From a virus, in the IMG/VR virus record IMGVR_UViG_3300029957_000007, positions 1 to 64,000 of that record: a stretch of 64,000 nt of DNA, one strand, 5' to 3'. Made by a program: the position numbers and the translations under genes. The notes beneath the pieces were generated by a model, which saw only the letters and a list, made by a program, of their open reading frames with translations, searched no databases and was not told the DNA's origin. Below, piece after piece: positions 5,992-17,037 of this stretch. The first letter of the stretch is position 1, and the number at the start of each line of letters is the position of its first letter.

Positions 5992-6127
5992 GATCCAAGT
6001 TCGAACGGTTCAGAATGTGAACATTGGAAAGTTCGATGGTGAAGAAGTGATCGATGTAAAGACAGAGAAAGGACGATTGACCATCACAACTCCTGTATTC
6101 GTGGAGAAGGAGAAAGCCAATGGCTAA
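5897..6127 (+). CDS. hypothetical protein
   Basis: GAGG SD then ATG 5897 (MPTISEQ...). Confidence 0.6.
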   Translation: MPTISEQALRELTAARLLTILKEIQTKRPFTEIQVRTVQNVNIGKFDGEEVIDVKTEKGRLTITTPVFVEKEKANG

Positions 6128-6461
6128 AGACAAAGTGGTGGATACGAAAGGTGATCGCAAACCGATCGAATACAAGTTGCTTCACGAGTTCGAAACGCTT
6201 TCAGACGGTGAGAACAGGAAACGGATGGTGACAATCGGACAATGGGGTTCCAATCCTCCGAAGGTTGACATCCGAGTCTGGAAGCGAGATCGTGAAAGTG
6301 GAGCTTGGTCGCCTGGTAAGGGCGTCTCATTGTCCTATGAGGAATGGACAATGATGATGAGCAACAACATGATGGAGAAGGTCGAAGAGAAGATCGCAGA
6401 AGAAGAGCAAGCCTTCGAAAAGAAGCAGAAGAAGGGTGACAAAGATAAGAAAGCGAAATAG
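6120..6461 (+). CDS. PC4/YdbC-like ssDNA-binding protein (transcriptional coactivator p15 family)
   Basis: VTIGQWGSNPPKVDIRVW...WSPGKGVSLSYEEW matches the PC4-family pattern. Confidence 0.75.
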   Translation: MAKDKVVDTKGDRKPIEYKLLHEFETLSDGENRKRMVTIGQWGSNPPKVDIRVWKRDRESGAWSPGKGVSLSYEEWTMMMSNNMMEKVEEKIAEEEQAFEKKQKKGDKDKKAK

Positions 6462-6463
6462 CT

Positions 6464-7069
6464 ATGTTCTCAAAATACCACGGACCAAATAGGATCGGAC
6501 CGAACCTCGTCAGAAGAGCAAGGCGCAGTGATGATGCATTCGAAGATCTGTTGAAGATCGCAGATCGACTCATCATTGCCTTTGCTCTCCGCAGTGGAGT
6601 TCGTGGTGAGAGCATCGATGATCTATTGCAAGATGGACGCATCGTTGCTTGGAACTGCGTTCAGAACTTCGATCCAAAGGCTGGAGCAAAGTTCACAACA
6701 TTCTTGGGTACGTCACTCAAGAACAGGTTCAATCAACATCACTACAGTCAATACACCTACAAACGAAAAGTTCGATCGTCTAGCGTGTCACTGGACGATA
6801 TGAGGGAAGACAAGCCACAGATGATCAATGGCATTAGTGATCATAAGAGCGATGATCAATTCAATCTTAAGAACACTGAGATCTTCCTCTCAGAGTTGAT
6901 GGACATCCTTCCAGAAGAAGGAAGGAAGGTCTGCCAACTGATGATGAAAGGCCTGACACAAGAGCAGATCGCAAAGAAGATGCATCTCACGAAAGCAAAG
7001 GTCAGATCCATCTTTGACCGTAAAGTTCGTGATCGCATCATCGATGCACAACAGAACAATTTCCTTTGA
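6464..7069 (+). CDS. RNA polymerase sigma-70 family sigma factor
   Basis: Region 2 DDLLQDGRIVAWNCVQNFDPKAGAKFTTF; region 4 HTH EGRKVCQLMMKGLTQEQIAKKMHLTKAKVRS. Confidence 0.85.
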   Translation: MFSKYHGPNRIGPNLVRRARRSDDAFEDLLKIADRLIIAFALRSGVRGESIDDLLQDGRIVAWNCVQNFDPKAGAKFTTFLGTSLKNRFNQHHYSQYTYKRKVRSSSVSLDDMREDKPQMINGISDHKSDDQFNLKNTEIFLSELMDILPEEGRKVCQLMMKGLTQEQIAKKMHLTKAKVRSIFDRKVRDRIIDAQQNNFL

Positions 7070-7234
7070 AGTGCAGCATTGGATCAGGCTTTCCGGATAC
7101 TATATCTTCGAGTTTGATTCACTCACTTCACAGGTCTACTGACGGAGGTGGACTATCGGTTTATGACGGCGAGCAGAAACGAGGCTGATCTACGTCAACT
7201 TTCACTTTTCAATCATCACACAGAAGGAGCCACC

Positions 7235-8200
7235 ATGGCCAAGGATAAGAAGAAGGACGAGGAACTGGAAGAGGACGAGAAGGACATCAAGAAGAAGGGC
7301 AAGAAGAAGGAAGATGAAGAGGACGAGGACGACGAGAAGCCGAAGAAGAAGGGCAAGGCAAAGGACGACGACGAAGATGAGGACGAAGACGAGGAGGAAG
7401 ACGAGAAGCCTTCCAAGAAGAAGTCCAAGTCTGACGACGAAGACGAAGATGATGATGACGATGACGACGAGAAGCCTTCAAAGAAGAAGTCCAAGTCCGA
7501 TGACGAAGACGAGGATGAAGACGAGGATGAGGATGACGACGACGATGAGGACGACAAGAAGTCCAAGTCGAAGAAGAAGTCCAAGTCTGACGACGAAGAC
7601 GAAGATGAAGACGAGGATGACGACGACGAGGAAGATGAAAAGCCTTCCAAGAAGAAGAAGTCCAAGTCCGATGAGGACGATGAAGACGACGACGAGGATG
7701 AGGACGAAAAGCCCAAGTCCAAGAAGAAGTCGAAGAAGTCCGATGACGAAGACGAAGATGAGGAAGACGAGAAGCCTTCCAAGAAGAAGTCCAAGAAGTC
7801 CTCTGATGACGATGAGGATGACGAGGATGAGGACGAGGAGAAGTCCTCCAAGTCCAAAAAGAAGTCCAAGTCCAAAGATGACGAAGAGGACGAGGACGAC
7901 GAGGAAGACACCCCCAAAGGAAAGAAGGAGAAAACCATGGCTAAGAAAGAGAAGGACGTGAAGAAGAGCAAGAAGGAGAAAGAGGAGAAGAAGGAGAAGA
8001 AGAGCAAGCGAGGCAGCGGTGGTGAGCGACTGGTGAAGCATTGGTCGGGAGTCGCTGAGCGGCTGGCCAAGCGCTTGGCCAAGAACGCCAAGAAGCTGAC
8101 CAGCGAGCTGAAGAAGGTGAAGGACGACAAGGAGTCCAGCAAGGCGCTGAGCTCTTTGGGAGAGTCCTTCGAGAAGGCTGCCAAGGTCTTGGCGGACTAA
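7235..8200 (+). CDS. D/E/K low-complexity protein with C-terminal helical domain (paralog of 56716-56988)
   Basis: AAGGAG SD before ATG 7235; alternating poly-D/E and KPSKKKSKS blocks; C-terminal RLAKRLAKNAKKL...KVKDDK. Confidence 0.85.
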   Translation: MAKDKKKDEELEEDEKDIKKKGKKKEDEEDEDDEKPKKKGKAKDDDEDEDEDEEEDEKPSKKKSKSDDEDEDDDDDDDEKPSKKKSKSDDEDEDEDEDEDDDDDEDDKKSKSKKKSKSDDEDEDEDEDDDDEEDEKPSKKKKSKSDEDDEDDDEDEDEKPKSKKKSKKSDDEDEDEEDEKPSKKKSKKSSDDDEDDEDEDEEKSSKSKKKSKSKDDEEDEDDEEDTPKGKKEKTMAKKEKDVKKSKKEKEEKKEKKSKRGSGGERLVKHWSGVAERLAKRLAKNAKKLTSELKKVKDDKESSKALSSLGESFEKAAKVLAD

Positions 8201-8217: not shown

Positions 8218-8248
8218 AGGAGAGGCGCCGAGAGGCGCCTCTCCTTTT
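8218..8248 (+). terminator. Rho-independent terminator
   Basis: 12-bp stem aggagaggcgcc / ggcgcctctcct, GAGA loop, followed by a T-run. Confidence 0.85.
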
Positions 8249-8306
8249 ATGGTCGAGCGCAGGTGAAACTCCGAGCGTCGACCTACACCTTTCAGAAAGG
8301 ATTCAC

Positions 8307-9047
8307 ATGTTCTTCTACGAAGCCTTCAGCACTTTCGATGGAGCCTATCGATCTGTGTTGAGAGACATCCTAACGAAGGCAAAGTACAGTCCTTCGTCTA
8401 GAGGCCGAAAGTTCTTTGAGATCCCACAGTACACATTCGTACTGGAGAATCCAATGAACAACGAAGTCTCAGCGACACCGCGAGGCTTCAAGAGAGAATT
8501 CGCTCAGAAGTTCTTTGAGTGGATCTGGAATGGTGAGTCAGACATCACCAAGCTCTTTGGTGTGAATGACAACGCCAAGAAGTTCAGCGACGAAGATATG
8601 AAGGGACGCAACACAGCATATGGACCTCGCTTTGTCGAACAGAGAGAGCGAATCATTGCTGAGCTGAAGAGAGATCCAGACACCAGACGAGCTGTGATCA
8701 ATATCCTCTATCCAATAGACTCAGAAATGCTGGAAGACTCGTTCAATGGGCTCACAAAGGTCGAGTACCCATGCACGATCGCACTGCAGTTCATGATCAG
8801 AGACAAGCAACTCAATCTTCATGTTCTGATGCGTTCGAACAACGCAGTCACAACGCTCTGCTATGATGTGTACAACTTCACACACATCCAAATGGCAGTA
8901 CTGCAGAGACTTCAGAACGAAGGAATGGAGATCGATCTCGGACATTACTATCACTCCGCAGTTTCGATGCACATCTTCGAAGATGAGATGAGCTTAGCGA
9001 AGAAGATCTTGAACTGGTACGTTCAAAGACAAGGCATCAAAATCTGA
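8307..9047 (+). CDS. thymidylate synthase-fold enzyme, dCMP hydroxymethylase-like (Asp at the pyrimidine-specificity position)
   Basis: AYGPR, DPDTRRAV, YPCT (catalytic Cys), LQFMIR, RSNNAVTTLCYD, YYHSAVSMHIF. Confidence 0.85.
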   Translation: MFFYEAFSTFDGAYRSVLRDILTKAKYSPSSRGRKFFEIPQYTFVLENPMNNEVSATPRGFKREFAQKFFEWIWNGESDITKLFGVNDNAKKFSDEDMKGRNTAYGPRFVEQRERIIAELKRDPDTRRAVINILYPIDSEMLEDSFNGLTKVEYPCTIALQFMIRDKQLNLHVLMRSNNAVTTLCYDVYNFTHIQMAVLQRLQNEGMEIDLGHYYHSAVSMHIFEDEMSLAKKILNWYVQRQGIKI

Positions 9048-9056
9048 GGAGGAAGC

Positions 9057-10127
9057 GTGCTCAAACTAATGGTTGGCAGCAACTACGACCCAGCGTTGCC
9101 TGAGGCTTTCAGAGCTCTCAACGAGAAGTATGCTGGTAATGGCATACAGATCCATGAGATCTATGGTTCAGTGCAAAGCGTTAAGGTGTTTGGTTCAGCG
9201 CGTCCTGACTTCCGTGTTCCTAAAACGGATGTTGAGACGTTCGGCAAGACGGTGAAGCAATTTGTTGATGCAGGAATCTTGGTGAACTACACCGAGAATA
9301 TTCCGATCGTCAAGAAGAGCGACATCGACAAGGTGTTGATCAAAGAGAAACTCGACATGCTGAAGAGCTTTGGCGTTGGGCGATTAACGATCAGCCATCC
9401 TCTTGCGATGGAGTTGGTTCAAGAGCTGTGCGACATTCCGATCGAGATCAGCACCATCTATCGAGCGAATACAGCGTACCAGCTGCGTGAGTTAAAGCGA
9501 CGGGCACCCAACATTAACAAGATGTGCTTGGATGTTGCTCAGAACCGGAACTTCAAACTCATCTTCAAGCTTCTCGAGGAAGCAAAGAAGCTCGGTATCG
9601 ACATCGAACTTCTGGCCAATGAGCTTTGCATTGCTGACTGCGCTGATCGAGTGCAGTGCTACAACGATCATGCTCAAGTGGCTGATGAGAAAGAAGCAGC
9701 TCAACAGAAGAGTTATCCGATGGGACGGTGCACTTATCTTCGCAATGCGATGAGTCCAGTTGAATGGACTCGTGCTCGCTTCATCTTGCCTCAGACGATG
9801 AAGTTCTACGAGTCAGTCACTGGCATCGATCATTTCAAGATCACTGGTCGTACTCACCCAACCAAGTACATCCTTTGGATCGTTGAGGAGTACTTGAAGC
9901 AAGACTTCCACGGTAATCTGCTTGGTCTTTGGGCTGATGTGAAGAACATTCAGCGCATTGCAAGAGGAGCAGAGGACTTCTTAGAACCTAACTTCTACAT
10001 TGACTCAGAACCATATGGCAGCGAGTTCATTCGCAGATATTTGAATGACCCGATGCTCATCGACTTGGATCTTGATCATGAGTATGACATACTCAACAAG
10101 ATCTTGGAGACGTCCCTACAGAAGTAG
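9057..10127 (+). CDS. U32 peptidase-family protein (probable Fe-S hydroxylase, UbiU/V/TrhP/RlhA-like)
   Basis: IEISTI, ELLANELCIADCADRVQC, YPMGRC, FIxPQ, FKITGRT (U32 KIEGR-like). Confidence 0.75.
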   Translation: MLKLMVGSNYDPALPEAFRALNEKYAGNGIQIHEIYGSVQSVKVFGSARPDFRVPKTDVETFGKTVKQFVDAGILVNYTENIPIVKKSDIDKVLIKEKLDMLKSFGVGRLTISHPLAMELVQELCDIPIEISTIYRANTAYQLRELKRRAPNINKMCLDVAQNRNFKLIFKLLEEAKKLGIDIELLANELCIADCADRVQCYNDHAQVADEKEAAQQKSYPMGRCTYLRNAMSPVEWTRARFILPQTMKFYESVTGIDHFKITGRTHPTKYILWIVEEYLKQDFHGNLLGLWADVKNIQRIARGAEDFLEPNFYIDSEPYGSEFIRRYLNDPMLIDLDLDHEYDILNKILETSLQK

Positions 10128-10151: not shown

Positions 10152-10490
10152 ATGAGCAAGAAAACCAAGAATGGCTTCAAGAAGCTTGAGAGCGGTGATC
10201 TGTCGTTCCGCTTCGAGCACTTTGAAGGTGGAGTGATCAAAGGTGGAGATGAGGTCAATGGTGACACGTTCACAGCTAGGATCTCGATGAGTGGAGCTGG
10301 TGAGGCTCCCGGTGTTTACAAGTCGGAGAAGAAAGCAAAGCAGCACATCATCGACTTCGTGAAGAAGCAGTTGAAGAGGACCTTGAAGGAATTCGAGAAG
10401 CGGTTGAAGGAAACCAAAGCTGATTTGAAGAGCGATGAGAAGGAAGTCGAGTTCCAGCAGAAGCTCCTCAAGAAACTGAAGAAGGTGTAG
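10152..10490 (+). CDS. hypothetical protein
   Basis: GGAGGT SD, 112 aa, C-terminal coiled coil. Confidence 0.75.
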   Translation: MSKKTKNGFKKLESGDLSFRFEHFEGGVIKGGDEVNGDTFTARISMSGAGEAPGVYKSEKKAKQHIIDFVKKQLKRTLKEFEKRLKETKADLKSDEKEVEFQQKLLKKLKKV

Positions 10491-10494
10491 AGAC

Positions 10495-10956
10495 ATGAAG
10501 GACAAGAATGCTCTTTGGACTGATCTGCTGCTTCGCTTTGCAGCACAATCAGAATGCAAGTCGAGGCAGATCGGAGCAATCATCCTTGTAGAAAACCGTC
10601 TGGTCTCACAAGGGTGGAACAGTCCGCCACCTCATGTGAGCACAGACGACTGTTTGCGGTGTCAGTGTAAAGACAAGCCGCATGAGTCAGGAAAGAACCT
10701 TGACAATGCGATCTGCATTCATGCAGAACAAAACGCTATCATGAATGCTGTATACAACGGCATAGCATTGAACGGCGCTGAGATGTGGTGCACCAATAAG
10801 CCTTGCGATATCTGTGCTGCAATGATCTGCCGGTCTGGGATCAAGACAGTCATATACCTCAATGACTACCCATCTCAATACGCAGACATGTTCTTTGCTA
10901 AGTCGAACATCCGGGCGTTCTCAATCGAACAATACTCCAAATGGAGCAGTCAATGA
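10495..10956 (+). CDS. dCMP deaminase (ComEB-like)
   Basis: QIGAII, GWN, HAEQNAI, PCDICA Zn-binding motifs. Confidence 0.9.
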   Translation: MKDKNALWTDLLLRFAAQSECKSRQIGAIILVENRLVSQGWNSPPPHVSTDDCLRCQCKDKPHESGKNLDNAICIHAEQNAIMNAVYNGIALNGAEMWCTNKPCDICAAMICRSGIKTVIYLNDYPSQYADMFFAKSNIRAFSIEQYSKWSSQ

Positions 10957-12248
10957 AGATCCTTTACGCAGTGCAAGTGTCCAACACAACGAAGATGCCA
11001 GACGGTTCTATGAAATGGTTGCTTCGCAATGATGCATGTGTCAACATCATGCGTGGCATCTTGATCGCTGTGTTGAAGAAGAAGCCTCAATGGCAGTTCG
11101 TCGTGAAGTTGCCAAGGTTGAAGGACATCGCAGACATGAAGTCGTATGCTGAGCTCTTCCCTGAAGAGATTCGCGACAACATCATGATCTATGAGGACGA
11201 CATCCCGATCTCACCTGTGACCAGTCGCTTCCACTTCGACTTCTTGCGTAGAAGGAAAGAGTTCCTCATCAATCCATTCCTTCATGGCATTGATGTCATG
11301 ATCAATGATGAGAACACTCACACAATGAGCTGGAAGGTCGTGTTCCACGATCTCGGCTTGAGCATTCCGATGATCAGTACCAATTACTTCTTCGACAATC
11401 CTATTGGGAAGAAGACACCGAAAGGTGTTTGGTACTTCGATCGTCAAGTGGAGAGCTTCATTCACTCTGAGATCACAGCTTTCCAATGTGAAGCTACGAA
11501 AGATGAGACGATCAGAGTCCTTGATCAGCATCTCACAAGAAAAGGCGATTACACAATGCATTGGAAGCCTTCGATCTGGGGCATTGGATGCAGCGCCACT
11601 GAAGTGCTTGACAAGAGGATCCAAGCTTTTGAATTTCATTCTCTTAGCTTGAGACCAATCATCTATTTTGGCAATCGAATCACAGAGACCGCTGGTCGAT
11701 ATACCAACTGGGATGATTTTGCTTATGGCATTGGAAAGTTGCTAGCGATCAAAGATCACACTCAATTCTCTGCTTACATGCTTGATCCAACTCGTAAAGT
11801 GACACGAGAACAACAAAACGTCATTGATGACGGTTCAGATCATCGGATCACTTTGCTTCATCTCAACAGAGAGCAGTATCTTGGTTTCATTCGCGGTCAG
11901 CACATCAGCTGCAACCTCTTCGTCAATGAGGTACATGGTGGCGTGACTCACGCAGAAGCCATGTTGGCTGGCAACTTGATCATCTGCCCTCGAGTCAACA
12001 ACTACAAGATCAAGATCGAGAAATATGCGAAGAACTATCCGCTCTTCGTGAAGCACAAAGGCTTCAAGATAGATACCACTGACCTTGCGAAGAAGATGCA
12101 TTTGGCTCTCACCATGCCGAAGGCTGAGCAATTGAAGTGGAGGAAAATGCTTGTCAAAGCTGCAATGGAGAACGAGACGTATGAGTCAGCGGCTCCACGC
12201 ATCATCGCTGATATCACAACTGCCAGCAAGATGGAGCTGATGCCATGA
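10953..12248 (+). CDS. GT-B fold glycosyltransferase (GT4-like)
   Basis: C-terminal IIYFGNR...EVHGGVTHAEAMLAGNLIICP resembles the GT4 E-x-FG-x3-EAM-x2-G-x-P motif; start at ATG 10953. Confidence 0.7.
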   Translation: MKILYAVQVSNTTKMPDGSMKWLLRNDACVNIMRGILIAVLKKKPQWQFVVKLPRLKDIADMKSYAELFPEEIRDNIMIYEDDIPISPVTSRFHFDFLRRRKEFLINPFLHGIDVMINDENTHTMSWKVVFHDLGLSIPMISTNYFFDNPIGKKTPKGVWYFDRQVESFIHSEITAFQCEATKDETIRVLDQHLTRKGDYTMHWKPSIWGIGCSATEVLDKRIQAFEFHSLSLRPIIYFGNRITETAGRYTNWDDFAYGIGKLLAIKDHTQFSAYMLDPTRKVTREQQNVIDDGSDHRITLLHLNREQYLGFIRGQHISCNLFVNEVHGGVTHAEAMLAGNLIICPRVNNYKIKIEKYAKNYPLFVKHKGFKIDTTDLAKKMHLALTMPKAEQLKWRKMLVKAAMENETYESAAPRIIADITTASKMELMP

Positions 12249-12424: not shown

Positions 12425-12696
12425 TAAACTCAATTCGTATTTCACTTCACAATCTTTTAGTTCGATTGGCGATGTGGATTCATCCAAGTAAACAGACGGC
12501 GCAAGAAATGATATTGGATCTTCGAAGAGAGCGATTGATCTTTGGTGAATCGTTTTATACGATCGTAAAGATCGATCCATACAAAGTGTTCATCAAAGCT
12601 TCAATCAACAATGACAAGGTACCTACTACTGCTGAGATCGCCGATATCTTTAGTGGCGCTGGGACACGACACATTTATGAGAGGGTAGAACAATGA
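12421..12696 (+). CDS. hypothetical protein
   Basis: ATG 12421 overlaps the upstream stop. Confidence 0.6.
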   Translation: MINSIRISLHNLLVRLAMWIHPSKQTAQEMILDLRRERLIFGESFYTIVKIDPYKVFIKASINNDKVPTTAEIADIFSGAGTRHIYERVEQ

Positions 12697-13265
12697 AGAT
12701 CATATTTGAAGGTGCAGACAAAACAGGCAAGACGACATTGGCCAATCTTCTCTCGAAGAAACTTGGCATGAAGATGTTCTATCCTCCGAGAGCAACTGAC
12801 AACGTGAGCTTCCCGGAAGGTGGAAAGATAGAGCACTACTTCTTAGGCATCAACAAAACAATGCTTGAGATGTTCAAGATGTTCGACAACTTCATCTGCG
12901 ATCGTTTCTTCATATCGGACGCAGTGTACTCTAAGATCTACGGAAGAACACAGAACATCAGCACGCCAATGATCACAAGCATCGAAGGCGATGTCTTAGT
13001 CGTTGTCACAACGTGCTCTTCTGCAACGAGAATGGAACGATTGATCGCAGAAAGTCCAGACGACACTGGACCAGAGTTTGATGAACATCTTCATGGTGTG
13101 ATGTTCACCGAGTACGTGAAGTTCTATGCTCCAAAGTTTCCAGCCAACTTCAGGTTCTTGATCGTTGACACTGGTCGTCACAATGAGAAGCAATGCATTG
13201 AGATGATAGAGGCAAAGATCAAGTTCATAAGGGCAATGCGCCTTAACAAGAAAAAGAAGTCGTGA
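12693..13265 (+). CDS. deoxynucleoside monophosphate kinase (thymidylate kinase-like)
   Basis: MKIIFEGADKTGKTT P-loop, ICDRF motif. Confidence 0.85.
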   Translation: MKIIFEGADKTGKTTLANLLSKKLGMKMFYPPRATDNVSFPEGGKIEHYFLGINKTMLEMFKMFDNFICDRFFISDAVYSKIYGRTQNISTPMITSIEGDVLVVVTTCSSATRMERLIAESPDDTGPEFDEHLHGVMFTEYVKFYAPKFPANFRFLIVDTGRHNEKQCIEMIEAKIKFIRAMRLNKKKKS

Positions 13266-13825
13266 ACTTAAAGCTGATCAACGCAAAAGTCGAACTGTGT
13301 AATAAATGTAAGCTGTCACCAAACAGAGGTCTTGGTTATGGTGATGGAAAATCAAAGATCATGTTCATCGCTCAAAACGCTGGATGGCAACCGAAGTCTC
13401 GCACAGCAGACATCATCCCATTCGGTTTAGATGATGGTGGCAACAACAGTGGTAGAACACTCGTCAAGTTGTTCAAAGATGTAGAGATGAATGCACCATA
13501 CTACATCACCAACGTGATGAAGTGCCCGACACCAGACAATAGGCCTCCTACAGATGATGAGATCTTTCGATGCATAGACTTTCTTCGCTTAGAACTAGAG
13601 AGTCAGAAGCCGAAGTTGATCTTCGTCATGGGCAACGTGGCTAAGCACTCCTACAACTTCTACATGAAGCGGTTGTTGAAGAAATTGTTGGATGATGGTC
13701 ACTGCTGGTTTGTGCATTACATGTGGCATCCACGAGCAGTGATGAGGAATCCAAAGCTTTACGCACAATGGAAAACTGAGTTCGATGCGTTCTGGACTCA
13801 GTACAAACATCTGGTGAAACAATGA
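13262..13825 (+). CDS. uracil-DNA glycosylase superfamily protein (family 4-like, divergent)
   Basis: CNKCKL, IMFIAQNAG, YITNVMKCPTPDNRPPTDDEIFRC, KPKLIFVMG, WHP. Confidence 0.85.
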   Translation: MNLKLINAKVELCNKCKLSPNRGLGYGDGKSKIMFIAQNAGWQPKSRTADIIPFGLDDGGNNSGRTLVKLFKDVEMNAPYYITNVMKCPTPDNRPPTDDEIFRCIDFLRLELESQKPKLIFVMGNVAKHSYNFYMKRLLKKLLDDGHCWFVHYMWHPRAVMRNPKLYAQWKTEFDAFWTQYKHLVKQ

Positions 13826-16800
13826 GCTTTGTCAACTTGCATATACACAGCGAGAACTCCTTACTCGATGGAGTTGGAACGATCAAAGAGATCGTGAAGA
13901 AAGCCAAAGAGCAAGGTTCACCTGCCATTGCTGTTACTGATCACGGTAATGTCAATGGTGCTGTGCAGCTCTATCAAGAATGCAAGGAAAACGGCATCAA
14001 ACCGATCTTTGGATCAGAGTTCTATTTCGGTTATGATGCTGAGAAGAAAGAGAAGAATACCGGCAACATGCACCTCATCGTGCTGGCTAAGAACAAGCAA
14101 GGCTTTGAGAATCTTCTGCGTCTCAACGGATGGGCCCACAAACACGGGTTCTATCGCAAGCCTCGCATAGACTTCGCTCATTTGAAAGAGTTGAAGGAAG
14201 GATTGATCGTTCTCTCTGGTTGTACTTCTGGTGTCATCGCCAAGAAGCTGATTGCCAAAGATTACGATGGAGCTTTAGAATGGGCAGAGAAATTCAAGAA
14301 GGTCTTTGGTGAAGACTACTATCTTGAGATGCAAGTGCACGACTACAAAGAACAAAGGGTCGTGAACAAAGGCATCATCAAACTCAGCGCAGAGTTGAAG
14401 ATCAAAACAGTCATCACCAATGATGCTCACTATGTCAACGAGGATGATGGTCTCCTCCAAGATGTGATGGCACTCATCAAGCAGAAGAAGACGTGGAAGG
14501 ATCGAAAGGAGGCTCTGGAAAGAATCAAACGTGGTGAGCCATCCAAAATGCCTTGGGAGCTTGGCTGCAAGCAACTGTGGATGAAGAGCGAAGACGAGAT
14601 GTTAGCGAGTTGGAAGGAATGGCATAAGGACTACATGGATCGTAAGATCTTTGAACGTTCTGTCGCTGAGACTGCGAAACTCTCGGAGAAGATAGACAAT
14701 GTCGCTATCGATTCATCTTACAAGTTTCCAAACATCGACTCTAAAAAGAGCGTTGAGGATACCTTTCAAGAAATGCTTGATGAAGGCTTTAAGAAACGAG
14801 GCTTCAAAGATTCAAGCAAAGATGAGAAAGCAAGAATCAAGTATGAACAGAAGATCCTTCAGGATTTAGGACTCCTGCCATACTTCGTGATCTTGGCCGA
14901 TGCAATCAAAGAAGCAAGGAAGCGTGGGATCATGGTTGGCATTGGTCGTGGTTCAGCCGCTGGTTCTCTCATCTGCTACTGCCTCGGCATCACAGGTGTC
15001 AATCCTCTGATCCACGGTCTGATGTTCGAAAGGTTCATCAGTCCAGCCAGAAAAGACATGCCTGATATTGACGTGGACTTCGAATCTGAACGCAAAGGCG
15101 AGATCGAAGAATACCTCATCAGCAAGTATGGTGAGGATAAGGTTGGACACGTTGCAACATATGGCATGATGCAGTTGAAGTCCTCCATCAAAGACGTTTC
15201 ACGTGTGATGGGTGGAGATCCAAAAGCTACCAACGATTTCACGGCTGTCTTCCCGAAAGACATTGACAAAGAAGTGAAGACGAAGTATCCGAAGCTTTCT
15301 GATTTTAAGGAAGCCTTCGCTGAGCACGTCGACAAGTTCTTGTCAGCACACGAGAAACATGAGAAGATCCTCAAAACAGCTTGGAAGCTCAAGGGTAGGA
15401 TTCGGCACATCAGTCAACATCCAGCTGGGATCGTCATCACTCCTAAGCCATTGGATCACTTGGTTGCGGTACAGCGACACGGTGGTAAGCTGTTGATTGG
15501 CTGGACAGAAGGTCAGAGGAAGGAACTGACTCCTTTCGGCTTTGTGAAGTATGACGTGTTGGGCATCAAAACGCTCGACATCTTGAAGAGAGCTTTGCAG
15601 CTTATCAAGAAGCGTCATGATAAAGACATCGACATTGAGACCATTCCGCTGACAGACAAGAAAGTCTACAAGAAAATGAGCAAGGGACTTTCACTCGGTT
15701 CCTTCCAGTTTGAAACTGACATCATGGCGATGATGCTCAGAGAACTTAAACCGGATTGCTTCGATGATCTTGCAGCTCTCAATGCTCTCGATCGACCTGG
15801 TCCGTTGCGAATGAAGATGGACAAGGTCTTCTATGATCTCAAGCATGGTGTTGAGAACAAGAATACGAAGAAGATGGTGAAACAGATCATGCGTAAGATG
15901 TTCCCTGAAACATACGGCGTTGTGCTGTATCAGGAACAAGTGATGATGGCTGCAATGCAGCTGTCAGGATTCTCAGTCATTGAAGCTGATGATATGAGAA
16001 GGACGATCACGAAGAATGTCGGTAAGTTCGACAAGCCAGAAGTCAAGAAACTGCTTGATGAAGTGAAGCATAAGTTCATCAGTCGTGCAACAAAGAAGAT
16101 CGGCGAGTCAGATGCTAAGTTCGTTTGGGAGATCATCTTCAAGTTCACTGAGTACGGCTTCAACAAGGCTCACTCAGTTTGCTATGCGATGATTGGCTAT
16201 CAATGCATGTATTTGAAAGTCAACTACCCAATCGAGTTCTACACAGCGATCCTTCAATGGTCCAGTGGCACTGACACTGAGGTCTACATTGAAGACGCTT
16301 TGAAGAACGGCATCAAGATCTTGCCAGTGGATATCAACAAGTCGAAGCTTCGCTTCAAGCCAGAAGGCGATGGCATCAGATATCCATTGGGTCACATCCG
16401 TGATGTGAAGAAAGCAGCCGTGAGGATCGTTGAAGAGAAATACAAAAGCTTCGACGACTTCCTCAAGAAGATAACAGGAAAGCGAGTCAACAAGAAGTCG
16501 ATCATGTCACTCATCAAGGCTGGTGCATTTGACTCGATGGATCCAAAGATCAAGCGTGACAAGCTTGCCTATCTCTACACTAAGATGAAAGCCAAACCAA
16601 AAGAGAGAGAGGCTATTGAACGAGAGAGGTGGGATGTTTCAAAGCTCCTGAAGATGGAGAAAGAAGCTTATGGCTTTGAATTCTCTGTCCATCTGTTCGA
16701 TGATATGCTCGTCAAGCTTGGAAAAGATCACGGCCTAGAACATTTAGAAAAGGTTTTCGAGAATGACGCCGGTTACCAAGCTCACGTTGGTGGTATCATT

Positions 16801-17037
16801 CGTTCAGTGAGAGAACATCGAGCCAGAAATGGTGTGATGGCCTTCGTTGACTTTCAATTCGGAAAGAAGAAGGCTTCACTTACGATCTTTGGTGATCGAT
16901 GGCAGACGTACAAACACTTCGTCAAGCCAGGTGCATTGTTCTATGGAGATCTCACAGTTTCAGAATATCGTGAGAAGAAGAACTTCGTGCTTTCTGGGCG
17001 TGGTGGAGCAGATAACTACATGAAAGTTGTAGATTGA
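13822..17037 (+). CDS. dnaE: DNA polymerase III alpha subunit (PolC/DnaE family C)
   Basis: PHP LHIHSENSLLDG/TDHG/TNDAH, GRGSAAGS, PDIDVD, HPAG, KYDVLG, YQEQVM, YGFNKAHS. Confidence 0.97.
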   Translation: MSFVNLHIHSENSLLDGVGTIKEIVKKAKEQGSPAIAVTDHGNVNGAVQLYQECKENGIKPIFGSEFYFGYDAEKKEKNTGNMHLIVLAKNKQGFENLLRLNGWAHKHGFYRKPRIDFAHLKELKEGLIVLSGCTSGVIAKKLIAKDYDGALEWAEKFKKVFGEDYYLEMQVHDYKEQRVVNKGIIKLSAELKIKTVITNDAHYVNEDDGLLQDVMALIKQKKTWKDRKEALERIKRGEPSKMPWELGCKQLWMKSEDEMLASWKEWHKDYMDRKIFERSVAETAKLSEKIDNVAIDSSYKFPNIDSKKSVEDTFQEMLDEGFKKRGFKDSSKDEKARIKYEQKILQDLGLLPYFVILADAIKEARKRGIMVGIGRGSAAGSLICYCLGITGVNPLIHGLMFERFISPARKDMPDIDVDFESERKGEIEEYLISKYGEDKVGHVATYGMMQLKSSIKDVSRVMGGDPKATNDFTAVFPKDIDKEVKTKYPKLSDFKEAFAEHVDKFLSAHEKHEKILKTAWKLKGRIRHISQHPAGIVITPKPLDHLVAVQRHGGKLLIGWTEGQRKELTPFGFVKYDVLGIKTLDILKRALQLIKKRHDKDIDIETIPLTDKKVYKKMSKGLSLGSFQFETDIMAMMLRELKPDCFDDLAALNALDRPGPLRMKMDKVFYDLKHGVENKNTKKMVKQIMRKMFPETYGVVLYQEQVMMAAMQLSGFSVIEADDMRRTITKNVGKFDKPEVKKLLDEVKHKFISRATKKIGESDAKFVWEIIFKFTEYGFNKAHSVCYAMIGYQCMYLKVNYPIEFYTAILQWSSGTDTEVYIEDALKNGIKILPVDINKSKLRFKPEGDGIRYPLGHIRDVKKAAVRIVEEKYKSFDDFLKKITGKRVNKKSIMSLIKAGAFDSMDPKIKRDKLAYLYTKMKAKPKEREAIERERWDVSKLLKMEKEAYGFEFSVHLFDDMLVKLGKDHGLEHLEKVFENDAGYQAHVGGIIRSVREHRARNGVMAFVDFQFGKKKASLTIFGDRWQTYKHFVKPGALFYGDLTVSEYREKKNFVLSGRGGADNYMKVVD

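Follow-up and report, generated by a model that had tools for sequence, protein, structure and literature searches.

The open reading frame (ORF) at positions 8307-9047 of the window raises the question of which reaction is carried out by a thymidylate synthase (TS) homologue that seems to combine specificity for dCMP with the loss of residues needed for folate chemistry, as was proposed in a preliminary description of this DNA. The window is the stretch that was analysed, namely the first 64 kb of the 122,758-bp IMG/VR record IMGVR_UViG_3300029957_000007. CheckV estimates this record to be 76% complete, which, together with its length, gives a phage genome size of roughly 160 kb. The ORF has a ribosome-binding site, AAAGGA, 5 nt upstream of its ATG, and its product was recognised as a member of the thymidylate synthase superfamily by Pfam (PF00303, E 2e-12, 47 bits) and PHROG (phrog_160, E 3e-34), with a best NCBIfam thymidylate synthase score of 65 bits, far below the cut-off of 175. 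No match was obtained when the 6 kb around the ORF were compared by megablast with 50,697 phage records, and the phage thus lacks a close cultured relative among them. The nearest PolIII-alpha sequences come from human faecal 'Bacteriophage sp.' records and are 32% identical. Residue pattern, fold, clade and gene context all support the reading that the product of ORF 8307-9047 is a dCMP 5-hydroxylase (5hodCMP synthase) with the fold of thymidylate synthase, to which a probability of about 0.85 is assigned.

Enzymes of this type were described by Lee et al. (NAR 2026, PMC13326640), who showed that RB69 gp48 and DLP3 gp80 convert dCMP to 5-hydroxy-dCMP. Expression in E. coli of RB69 gp48, either alone or with its dNMP kinase, yields 5hodC, the oxygen of which is derived from O2. 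An 18O label from 18O2 is incorporated by the 5hodCMP synthases, and an FMN-like flavin is loosely bound by them. Nine further diverse D169N homologues (from Thanatos, RL38JI and IMG/VR) all gave 5hodC. The verified 5hodC makers carry the combination D169N, N177D and L143E, and D169N was put forward as the diagnostic residue of 5hodCMP synthases. For a crystal structure of the HY126 enzyme with flavin, Lee et al. cite He et al. (Nat Chem Biol 2026). In the characterised systems, sugars are put on the DNA by separate glycosyltransferases (PMC13326640). The D169N/N177D signature and its chemistry are already published, and the family itself is no longer new.

The window protein was placed in this framework using three alignments: a MAFFT L-INS-i alignment of 19 sequences, including E. 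coli ThyA, the phage's own ThyA, T4 gp42 and RB69 gp48; a MAFFT alignment of 173 family members; and a profile-profile alignment by hhalign of 60 relatives of the window protein with 32 ThyA, gp42 and MilA-like sequences (probability 100, E 4e-61). All three yielded one identical residue map relative to E. coli ThyA. The strings quoted in the preliminary description, MRSNNAVTTLCYD of the window protein, QRSCDVFLGLPFN of E. coli ThyA and MRSNDVVFGFRND of T4 gp42, are present and align as was stated there. The catalytic Cys is C156 (C146 in E. coli ThyA), and the nucleotide-phosphate ligands R126/R127, R166 and S167 of ThyA correspond to R127/R128, R176 and S177, respectively; C156 and these four ligands are each kept in at least 93% of 163 relatives. 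Y105 and H222 occupy the positions of Y94 and H207. D187 is located at N177, the site of cytosine specificity, while E153, N179 and T183 align with L143, D169 and G173, and F69 aligns with E58. The retained Cys and Arg pair, the Asp at the specificity site, the Asn at D169 and the Phe at E58 had all been pointed out earlier, and the three alignments bear them out. A proper alignment that restored Glu58 or Asp169 had been named as an outcome that would speak against the proposal; neither residue was restored in any of the three. T157 does align with His147 as had been claimed, but it is no sign of lost folate chemistry, because the folate-dependent T4 gp42 has Thr at this position too. Placing FFEW on ELLW, by which E71, two residues after F69, would become the equivalent of Glu58, was rejected by all three alignments and by the clade consensus, and E71 is not a conserved residue among the clade members.

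The replacements in the window protein recur throughout its relatives. Asn169 is present in 66 of the 173 sequences, none of which has Glu58. Phe is the commonest residue at position 58 in these sequences (49/66), followed by Met, Leu and Tyr, and position 143 is Glu in all except one of them (65/66). Glu58 and Asp169 are paired in 97 of the 173 relatives. In the group of 97 relatives with Asp169 and Asp177, to which T4 gp42 belongs, Glu58 and Asp169 are each found in 98-100% of the sequences and position 143 is Asp in 93%. Only three columns separate both groups cleanly, namely 58 (Glu to Phe), 143 (Glu versus Asp) and 169 (Asp to Asn); Gly173 changes along with them, to Thr or Val. Judged from these sequences, the Phe69/Asn179 pattern is a family signature and no alignment slip. 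The loss of Glu58, usually to Phe, is a second marker that accompanies D169N in every sequence of the family sampled here, and it could sharpen annotation since the labels thymidylate synthase and dCMP hydroxymethylase persist on many such genes. Together with the lead on the U32 protein discussed below, this marker residue is the main addition to what has been published. Three members of the 173-sequence set (P0239, P0288 and P0290) show the pattern E58N, L143D, D169S.

In a FastTree phylogeny, in which support is SH-like only and branches are long, the window protein falls in a clade of 72 rows (SH-like 99), 65 of which are D169N. A nested set of 64 rows (SH-like 96) contains the window protein together with RB69 gp48 and a Pootjesviridae homologue, and T4 gp42 branches in another clade, the members of which have retained Asp169. 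Position 169 does vary within the 72-row clade, as two of its members have Asp and five have Cys or Ser. The best PDB sequence matches of the window protein are 9iqu, 9iqc and 9ir2 (E 2e-26). Its AF2 model (pLDDT 94.3) gave as top Foldseek matches 9iqc, titled 'Monooxygenase dependent on riboflavin with dCMP and FAD', and 9iqu, titled 'phage HY126 dCMP hydroxylase-AfhB', with TM scores of 0.82-0.92 and an rmsd of 2.1-2.2 Å in what is a fold-level comparison rather than a residue-by-residue superposition. MilA came next in this structural ranking, and ThyA and T4 gp42 were clearly behind. The window protein shares the TS fold, the catalytic Cys, N177D, L143E and D169N with AfhB, RB69 gp48, DLP3 gp80 and RL38JI gp216; the loss of Glu58, the clade and the best structural match also place it with the AfhB/RB69 gp48 family, albeit at an identity of only 27-32% to any characterised member. 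The cytosine-specific CMP 5-hydroxymethylases MilA and BcmA are the next best matches (E 1e-19, TM 0.82-0.84). Both differ in acting on a ribonucleotide and in carrying a C-terminal extension; MilA keeps the Asp169 equivalent, in a RAND motif, and the MilA-like relative P0023 keeps Glu58 as well.

The criteria by which ThyA (EC 2.1.1.45) is recognised point away from this protein, as F69, N179 and D187 replace Glu58, Asp169 and Asn177. As a folate-dependent enzyme of the T4 gp42 type, a dCMP hydroxymethylase, it would make 5hmdCMP for the glycosyltransferase to decorate. The window protein resembles gp42 in fold, in the catalytic Cys, in Thr at His147, in Asp at N177 and in an acidic residue at L143. 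It would also share with gp42 a role, putative in the window phage, in supplying modified dCMP for glycosylated phage DNA, and relatives of the window protein are labelled dCMP hydroxymethylase in many database records. RB69 gp48 was itself formerly assumed to be a hydroxymethylase before its product was shown to be 5hodC (PMC13326640). T4 gp42 uses CH2-THF and keeps Glu60 and the Asp169 equivalent, the two residues that are nearly invariant in its group of 97 and that are Phe and Asn in the window protein, which moreover branches away from gp42 and together with verified 5hodCMP synthases. A hydroxymethylase is therefore considered highly improbable. A different, undescribed C5 reaction, or another substrate such as CMP or dUMP, is suggested by the identity of only about 30% to tested enzymes, by the CMP enzyme MilA being nearly as close structurally and by the Cys and Ser residues found at position 169 in the wider clade. 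Every published diagnostic residue is, however, present in the window protein, all nine of the diverse D169N homologues tested by Lee et al. made 5hodC (PMC13326640), and a location among replication genes, along with those of a dNMP kinase and a glycosyltransferase, suits a deoxynucleotide bound for DNA, which makes this alternative very unlikely as well.

For the 5hodCMP synthase that is preferred here, the characterised relatives suggest a mechanism in which Cys156 would attack C6 of dCMP, Asp187 would select cytosine and the activated C5 would be hydroxylated by loosely bound reduced flavin and O2, no methylene being taken from CH2-THF. It is proposed that the replacement of Glu58 and Asp169 by Phe69 and Asn179 goes with this change from methylene transfer to flavin- and O2-dependent hydroxylation. 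The preliminary description had the enzyme activate C5 of dCMP for the addition of something other than a methylene group, either a hydroxyl or a sugar. The hydroxyl agrees with the homology to RB69 gp48, DLP3 gp80, the RL38JI enzyme and AfhB; direct addition of a sugar is not supported, as separate glycosyltransferases do this elsewhere and a GT-B protein is encoded three genes downstream here. The features of the locus are listed in Table 1.

Table 1 Features of the modification cluster and related genes in record IMGVR_UViG_3300029957_000007
Feature	Position	Strand	Size	Basis and remarks
PC4-like ssDNA-binding/transcription-coactivator domain protein, followed by a sigma-70-like factor	6120-7069	+		PC4-like domain, PF02229 E 3e-9
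Acidic-run protein	7148-8200	+	350 aa	Gene ends at the hairpin below
Terminator-like hairpin, 3' of the acidic-protein gene	8220-8249			Sequence itself, plus strand: perfect 10-bp GC-rich stem, 4-nt loop, CTTTTA
Ribosome-binding site	8296-8301			AAAGGA
Putative TS-fold dCMP 5-hydroxylase (5hodCMP synthase, AfhB / RB69 gp48 family)	8307-9047	+	246 aa	See text
U32-family protein	9057-10127	+	356 aa	phrog_5757 E 3e-51
Small basic ORF, no assigned family	10152-10490	+	112 aa	
dCMP deaminase	10495-10956	+	153 aa	PF00383 E 1e-18; phrog_174 E 5e-34
GT-B fold glycosyltransferase	10941-12248	+	435 aa	No Pfam model; AF2 pLDDT 88.4, Foldseek
dTMP-kinase-like nucleotide kinase	12693-13265	+	190 aa	PF02223; phrog_761 E 4e-19
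Family-4 UDG-like protein	13262-13825	+	187 aa	PF03167 E 4e-16; NCBIfam UDG family 4 below cut-off
PolIII-alpha	13822-17037			UDG-like gene runs into it
Nucleotide pyrophosphohydrolase (outside the window)	109776-110507			phrog_671 E 3e-35
Canonical ThyA (outside the window)	110504-111307			393 bits

The neighbours of the putative 5hodCMP synthase parallel the products of RB69 genes 45-50, with a kinase, a GT-B glycosyltransferase and a U32 protein. The kinase is the counterpart of RB69 gp45, DLP3 gp78 and RL38JI gp214 (Table 1 of PMC13326640). A sequence search of the PDB gave no match for the GT-B protein, the model of which matched OtsA, MshA (3c4q), SPS (6kih) and BshA (3mbo) in Foldseek at E about 1e-12; Lee et al. 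list the same PDB matches for arabinosyltransferase 1 of DLP3 and of RB69 (PMC13326640). On the strength of this model, the protein is a candidate DNA 5-hydroxycytosine glycosyltransferase, and its family comprises at least 160 homologue clusters at 90% identity. For the small basic ORF no Pfam match was found at cut-off (DUF5659 reached 20.4 bits against 23.6), and none in PHROG or NCBIfam. The phage's own canonical ThyA is encoded elsewhere in its record, directly preceded, with a slight overlap, by the gene of a pyrophosphohydrolase that is a candidate dCTPase. A search of the record, which is 76% complete, showed neither a dUTPase domain nor homologues of RB69 gp51-55, nor any SIS, NTP_transferase or Glycos_transf_1 domains. 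The lack of a sugar-nucleotide or arabinose pathway is provisional, since the record falls short of the full genome by about a quarter.

From this gene neighbourhood, a pathway can be envisaged in which the pyrophosphohydrolase would convert dCTP to dCMP, the dTMP-kinase-like kinase would take 5hodCMP towards the triphosphate, and the PolIII-alpha polymerase of the phage would incorporate the 5-hydroxy-dC nucleotide. The GT-B enzyme would subsequently glycosylate the 5-hydroxyl on the DNA. As no phage sugar-nucleotide pathway was found, a host NDP-sugar would be the donor; the sugar probably comes from this source and need not be arabinose. The dCMP deaminase and the canonical ThyA would supply dTMP. 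The end product is likely glycosyl-5-hydroxycytosine DNA. The window phage differs from RB69, DLP3 and RL38JI in that it is uncultured, has a PolIII-alpha replicase and lies outside the Straboviridae and Pootjesviridae. It also differs from the characterised 5hodC phages in that neither an arabinose nor a galactofuranose pathway was found in its record and in that its glycosyltransferase belongs to a different family, one that has no Pfam model. By its sequence, the window gene adds a distant member to the 5hodCMP synthase family, from a new lineage of phages in which the glycosyltransferase differs, and the family now reaches an uncultured lineage that replicates with PolIII-alpha. The pairing with a large uncharacterised glycosyltransferase family, and the lack of arabinose genes, suggest that more kinds of glycosyl-5-hydroxycytosine DNA probably exist. 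As DNA of this type resists restriction enzymes and CRISPR, this matters for phage biology and for the choice of phages for therapy.

The product of the gene directly downstream, 10 nt from that of the TS-like protein, scores 23.1 bits against PF01136, a narrow margin over the cut-off of 22.4, and is 32-36% identical to RB69 gp50. A sequence search of the PDB gave no match for it, and a literature search on U32 together with phage produced nothing further. PF01136 is common to the bacterial proteins RlhA, TrhP and UbiU/UbiV, all of which are very distant from the phage U32 proteins, as is evident from the weak profile scores (RlhA 18.5, TrhP 18.2, UbiU 6.4 and UbiV 1.0 bits). RlhA is required for ho5C2501 in 23S rRNA and TrhP for ho5U34 in tRNA, both of which are C5 hydroxylations (PMC10990095, PMC6599085). 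The U32 members are required for O2-independent hydroxylation, with prephenate shown to be the oxygen donor for UbiU/V; it is the requirement that was shown for these proteins, direct hydroxylase activity in vitro having been shown for none (PMC10990095). Cys157, Cys191, Cys201 and Cys225 are invariant in the phage U32 subfamily, C157 having been checked in 37 phage homologues. C191, C201 and C225 align with C169, C176 and C193 of UbiU and with C170, C177 and C193 of TrhP, and are thus the three canonical cluster cysteines. The phage proteins differ from RlhA, TrhP, UbiU and UbiV in that the fourth canonical position is empty and the fourth Cys, the invariant C157, is placed elsewhere. The window U32 protein is probably an Fe-S protein.

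The preliminary description had the TS-like enzyme act in partnership with this U32 protein. If the two formed an obligate two-component enzyme, the U32 protein could, for instance, deliver electrons or reduced flavin. A reductase has to come from somewhere, as the flavin is only loosely bound in the characterised enzymes, and RB69 gp50 was labelled 'sugar or heterocycle reductase' by Lee et al. (PMC13326640). The two genes are immediate neighbours in the window and are separated by one small ORF in RB69 and other Mosigvirus phages. However, RB69 gp48 and DLP3 gp80 make 5hodC in E. coli without a U32 protein, and none is listed for DLP3 or RL38JI (PMC13326640). U32 is also absent from 12 of the 13 other records with a D169N gene; the 12 include Sphingomonas phage PAU and a Rhizobium phage, and four of them are complete genomes. 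Conversely, five U32 phage genomes that are 97-100% complete are devoid of any TS-family gene and keep the rest of the module; in three of these genomes (G025, G023 and G031) the absence was confirmed by an unfiltered hmmsearch of all six frames. A partnership in the obligate sense is not supported by these observations and is regarded as improbable.

Among the 37 IMG/VR loci of this U32 subfamily, a TS-family gene is found within 10 kb in only ten. Over the same distance, genes were found for a UDG-like protein in 15 loci, a dCMP deaminase in 14, a glycosyltransferase in 14, PolIII-alpha in 12 and a kinase in nine. U32 sits consistently in nucleotide and replication modules. Its occurrence here without arabinose genes argues against the older label of RB69-like U32 homologues as UDP-arabinose biosynthesis proteins. 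In eight IMG/VR loci (L028, L029, L030, L034, L035, L037, L044 and L058), a protein of about 330 aa in which a deoxynucleotide kinase is fused with a dCMP deaminase is encoded directly upstream of U32, typically about 9 nt away, which points to a role for U32 at the level of deoxynucleotides. An unfused dCMP deaminase in L036 belongs to the same gene cluster as the fused proteins. The UDG-like gene goes with the module of U32, glycosyltransferase, deaminase and kinase, and is also present at L036:12756-13982.

The distribution of the two genes beside the 435-aa glycosyltransferase family follows an either/or pattern in a small sample of nine informative IMG/VR viral loci, taken with flanks of 10 kb on either side. 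A D169N TS-like gene upstream of the glycosyltransferase gene, in most loci directly beside it, occurs without U32 in eight of these loci, U32 without a TS-like gene occurs in one, and no locus lacks both; the window has both beside the glycosyltransferase. The genome G023 (99.7 kb, with terminal repeats and 100% complete) carries a row of genes for U32, a homologue of the 435-aa glycosyltransferase, dCMP deaminase, a UDG-like protein and a dTMP-kinase-like protein without a TS-family gene, and this cluster is the module of the window minus the TS-like gene. The 164-kb genome G025 (IMGVR_UViG_3300045988_126789; L038, L075-L083), 100% complete by CheckV, encodes an arabinose-5-phosphate isomerase, an AfhE-like bifunctional nucleotidyltransferase-kinase, a glycosyltransferase and U32, with no TS-family gene in any frame. 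Two ORFs of about 236 aa that follow U32 in this genome were considered as hidden TS homologues and are not related to TS.

This gene distribution, a matter of comparative genomics, allows a tentative suggestion: the phage U32 protein could be an O2-independent C5 hydroxylase of a deoxypyrimidine nucleotide or of DNA that serves as an alternative to the TS-like enzyme and probably takes its oxygen from prephenate. It is put forward with some reserve, given that it follows from the distribution of genes at a few glycosyltransferase loci. If true, phages that have both genes, such as this one and RB69-like phages, could modify their DNA with or without oxygen, and this choice between two enzymes would mirror those of bacterial TrhO/TrhP and UbiIHF/UbiUV. 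The either/or pattern bears on the function of RB69 gp50 and on anoxic base modification in phages of facultative anaerobes.

A TS-family variant of about 343 aa is encoded directly upstream of U32 in three loci (L042:7224-8252, L043:8933-9961 and L054:8933-9961), with a homologue of the 435-aa glycosyltransferase downstream. Its motif places Ser at the D169 position, and it may carry out yet another C5 chemistry.

Upstream of the modification cluster in the window, the gene of the PC4-like protein precedes that of a sigma-70-like factor (regions 2 and 4), and the gene of the acidic-run protein comes shortly after. The strong hairpin at the end of the acidic-protein gene marks off the modification cluster as a unit of its own. 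The acidic-run protein adjoins this cluster on its upstream side and consists almost wholly of alternating acidic (D/E) runs and basic patches of the KKKSKS type; possible roles are those of a DNA mimic, a histone-like protein or a packaging protein.
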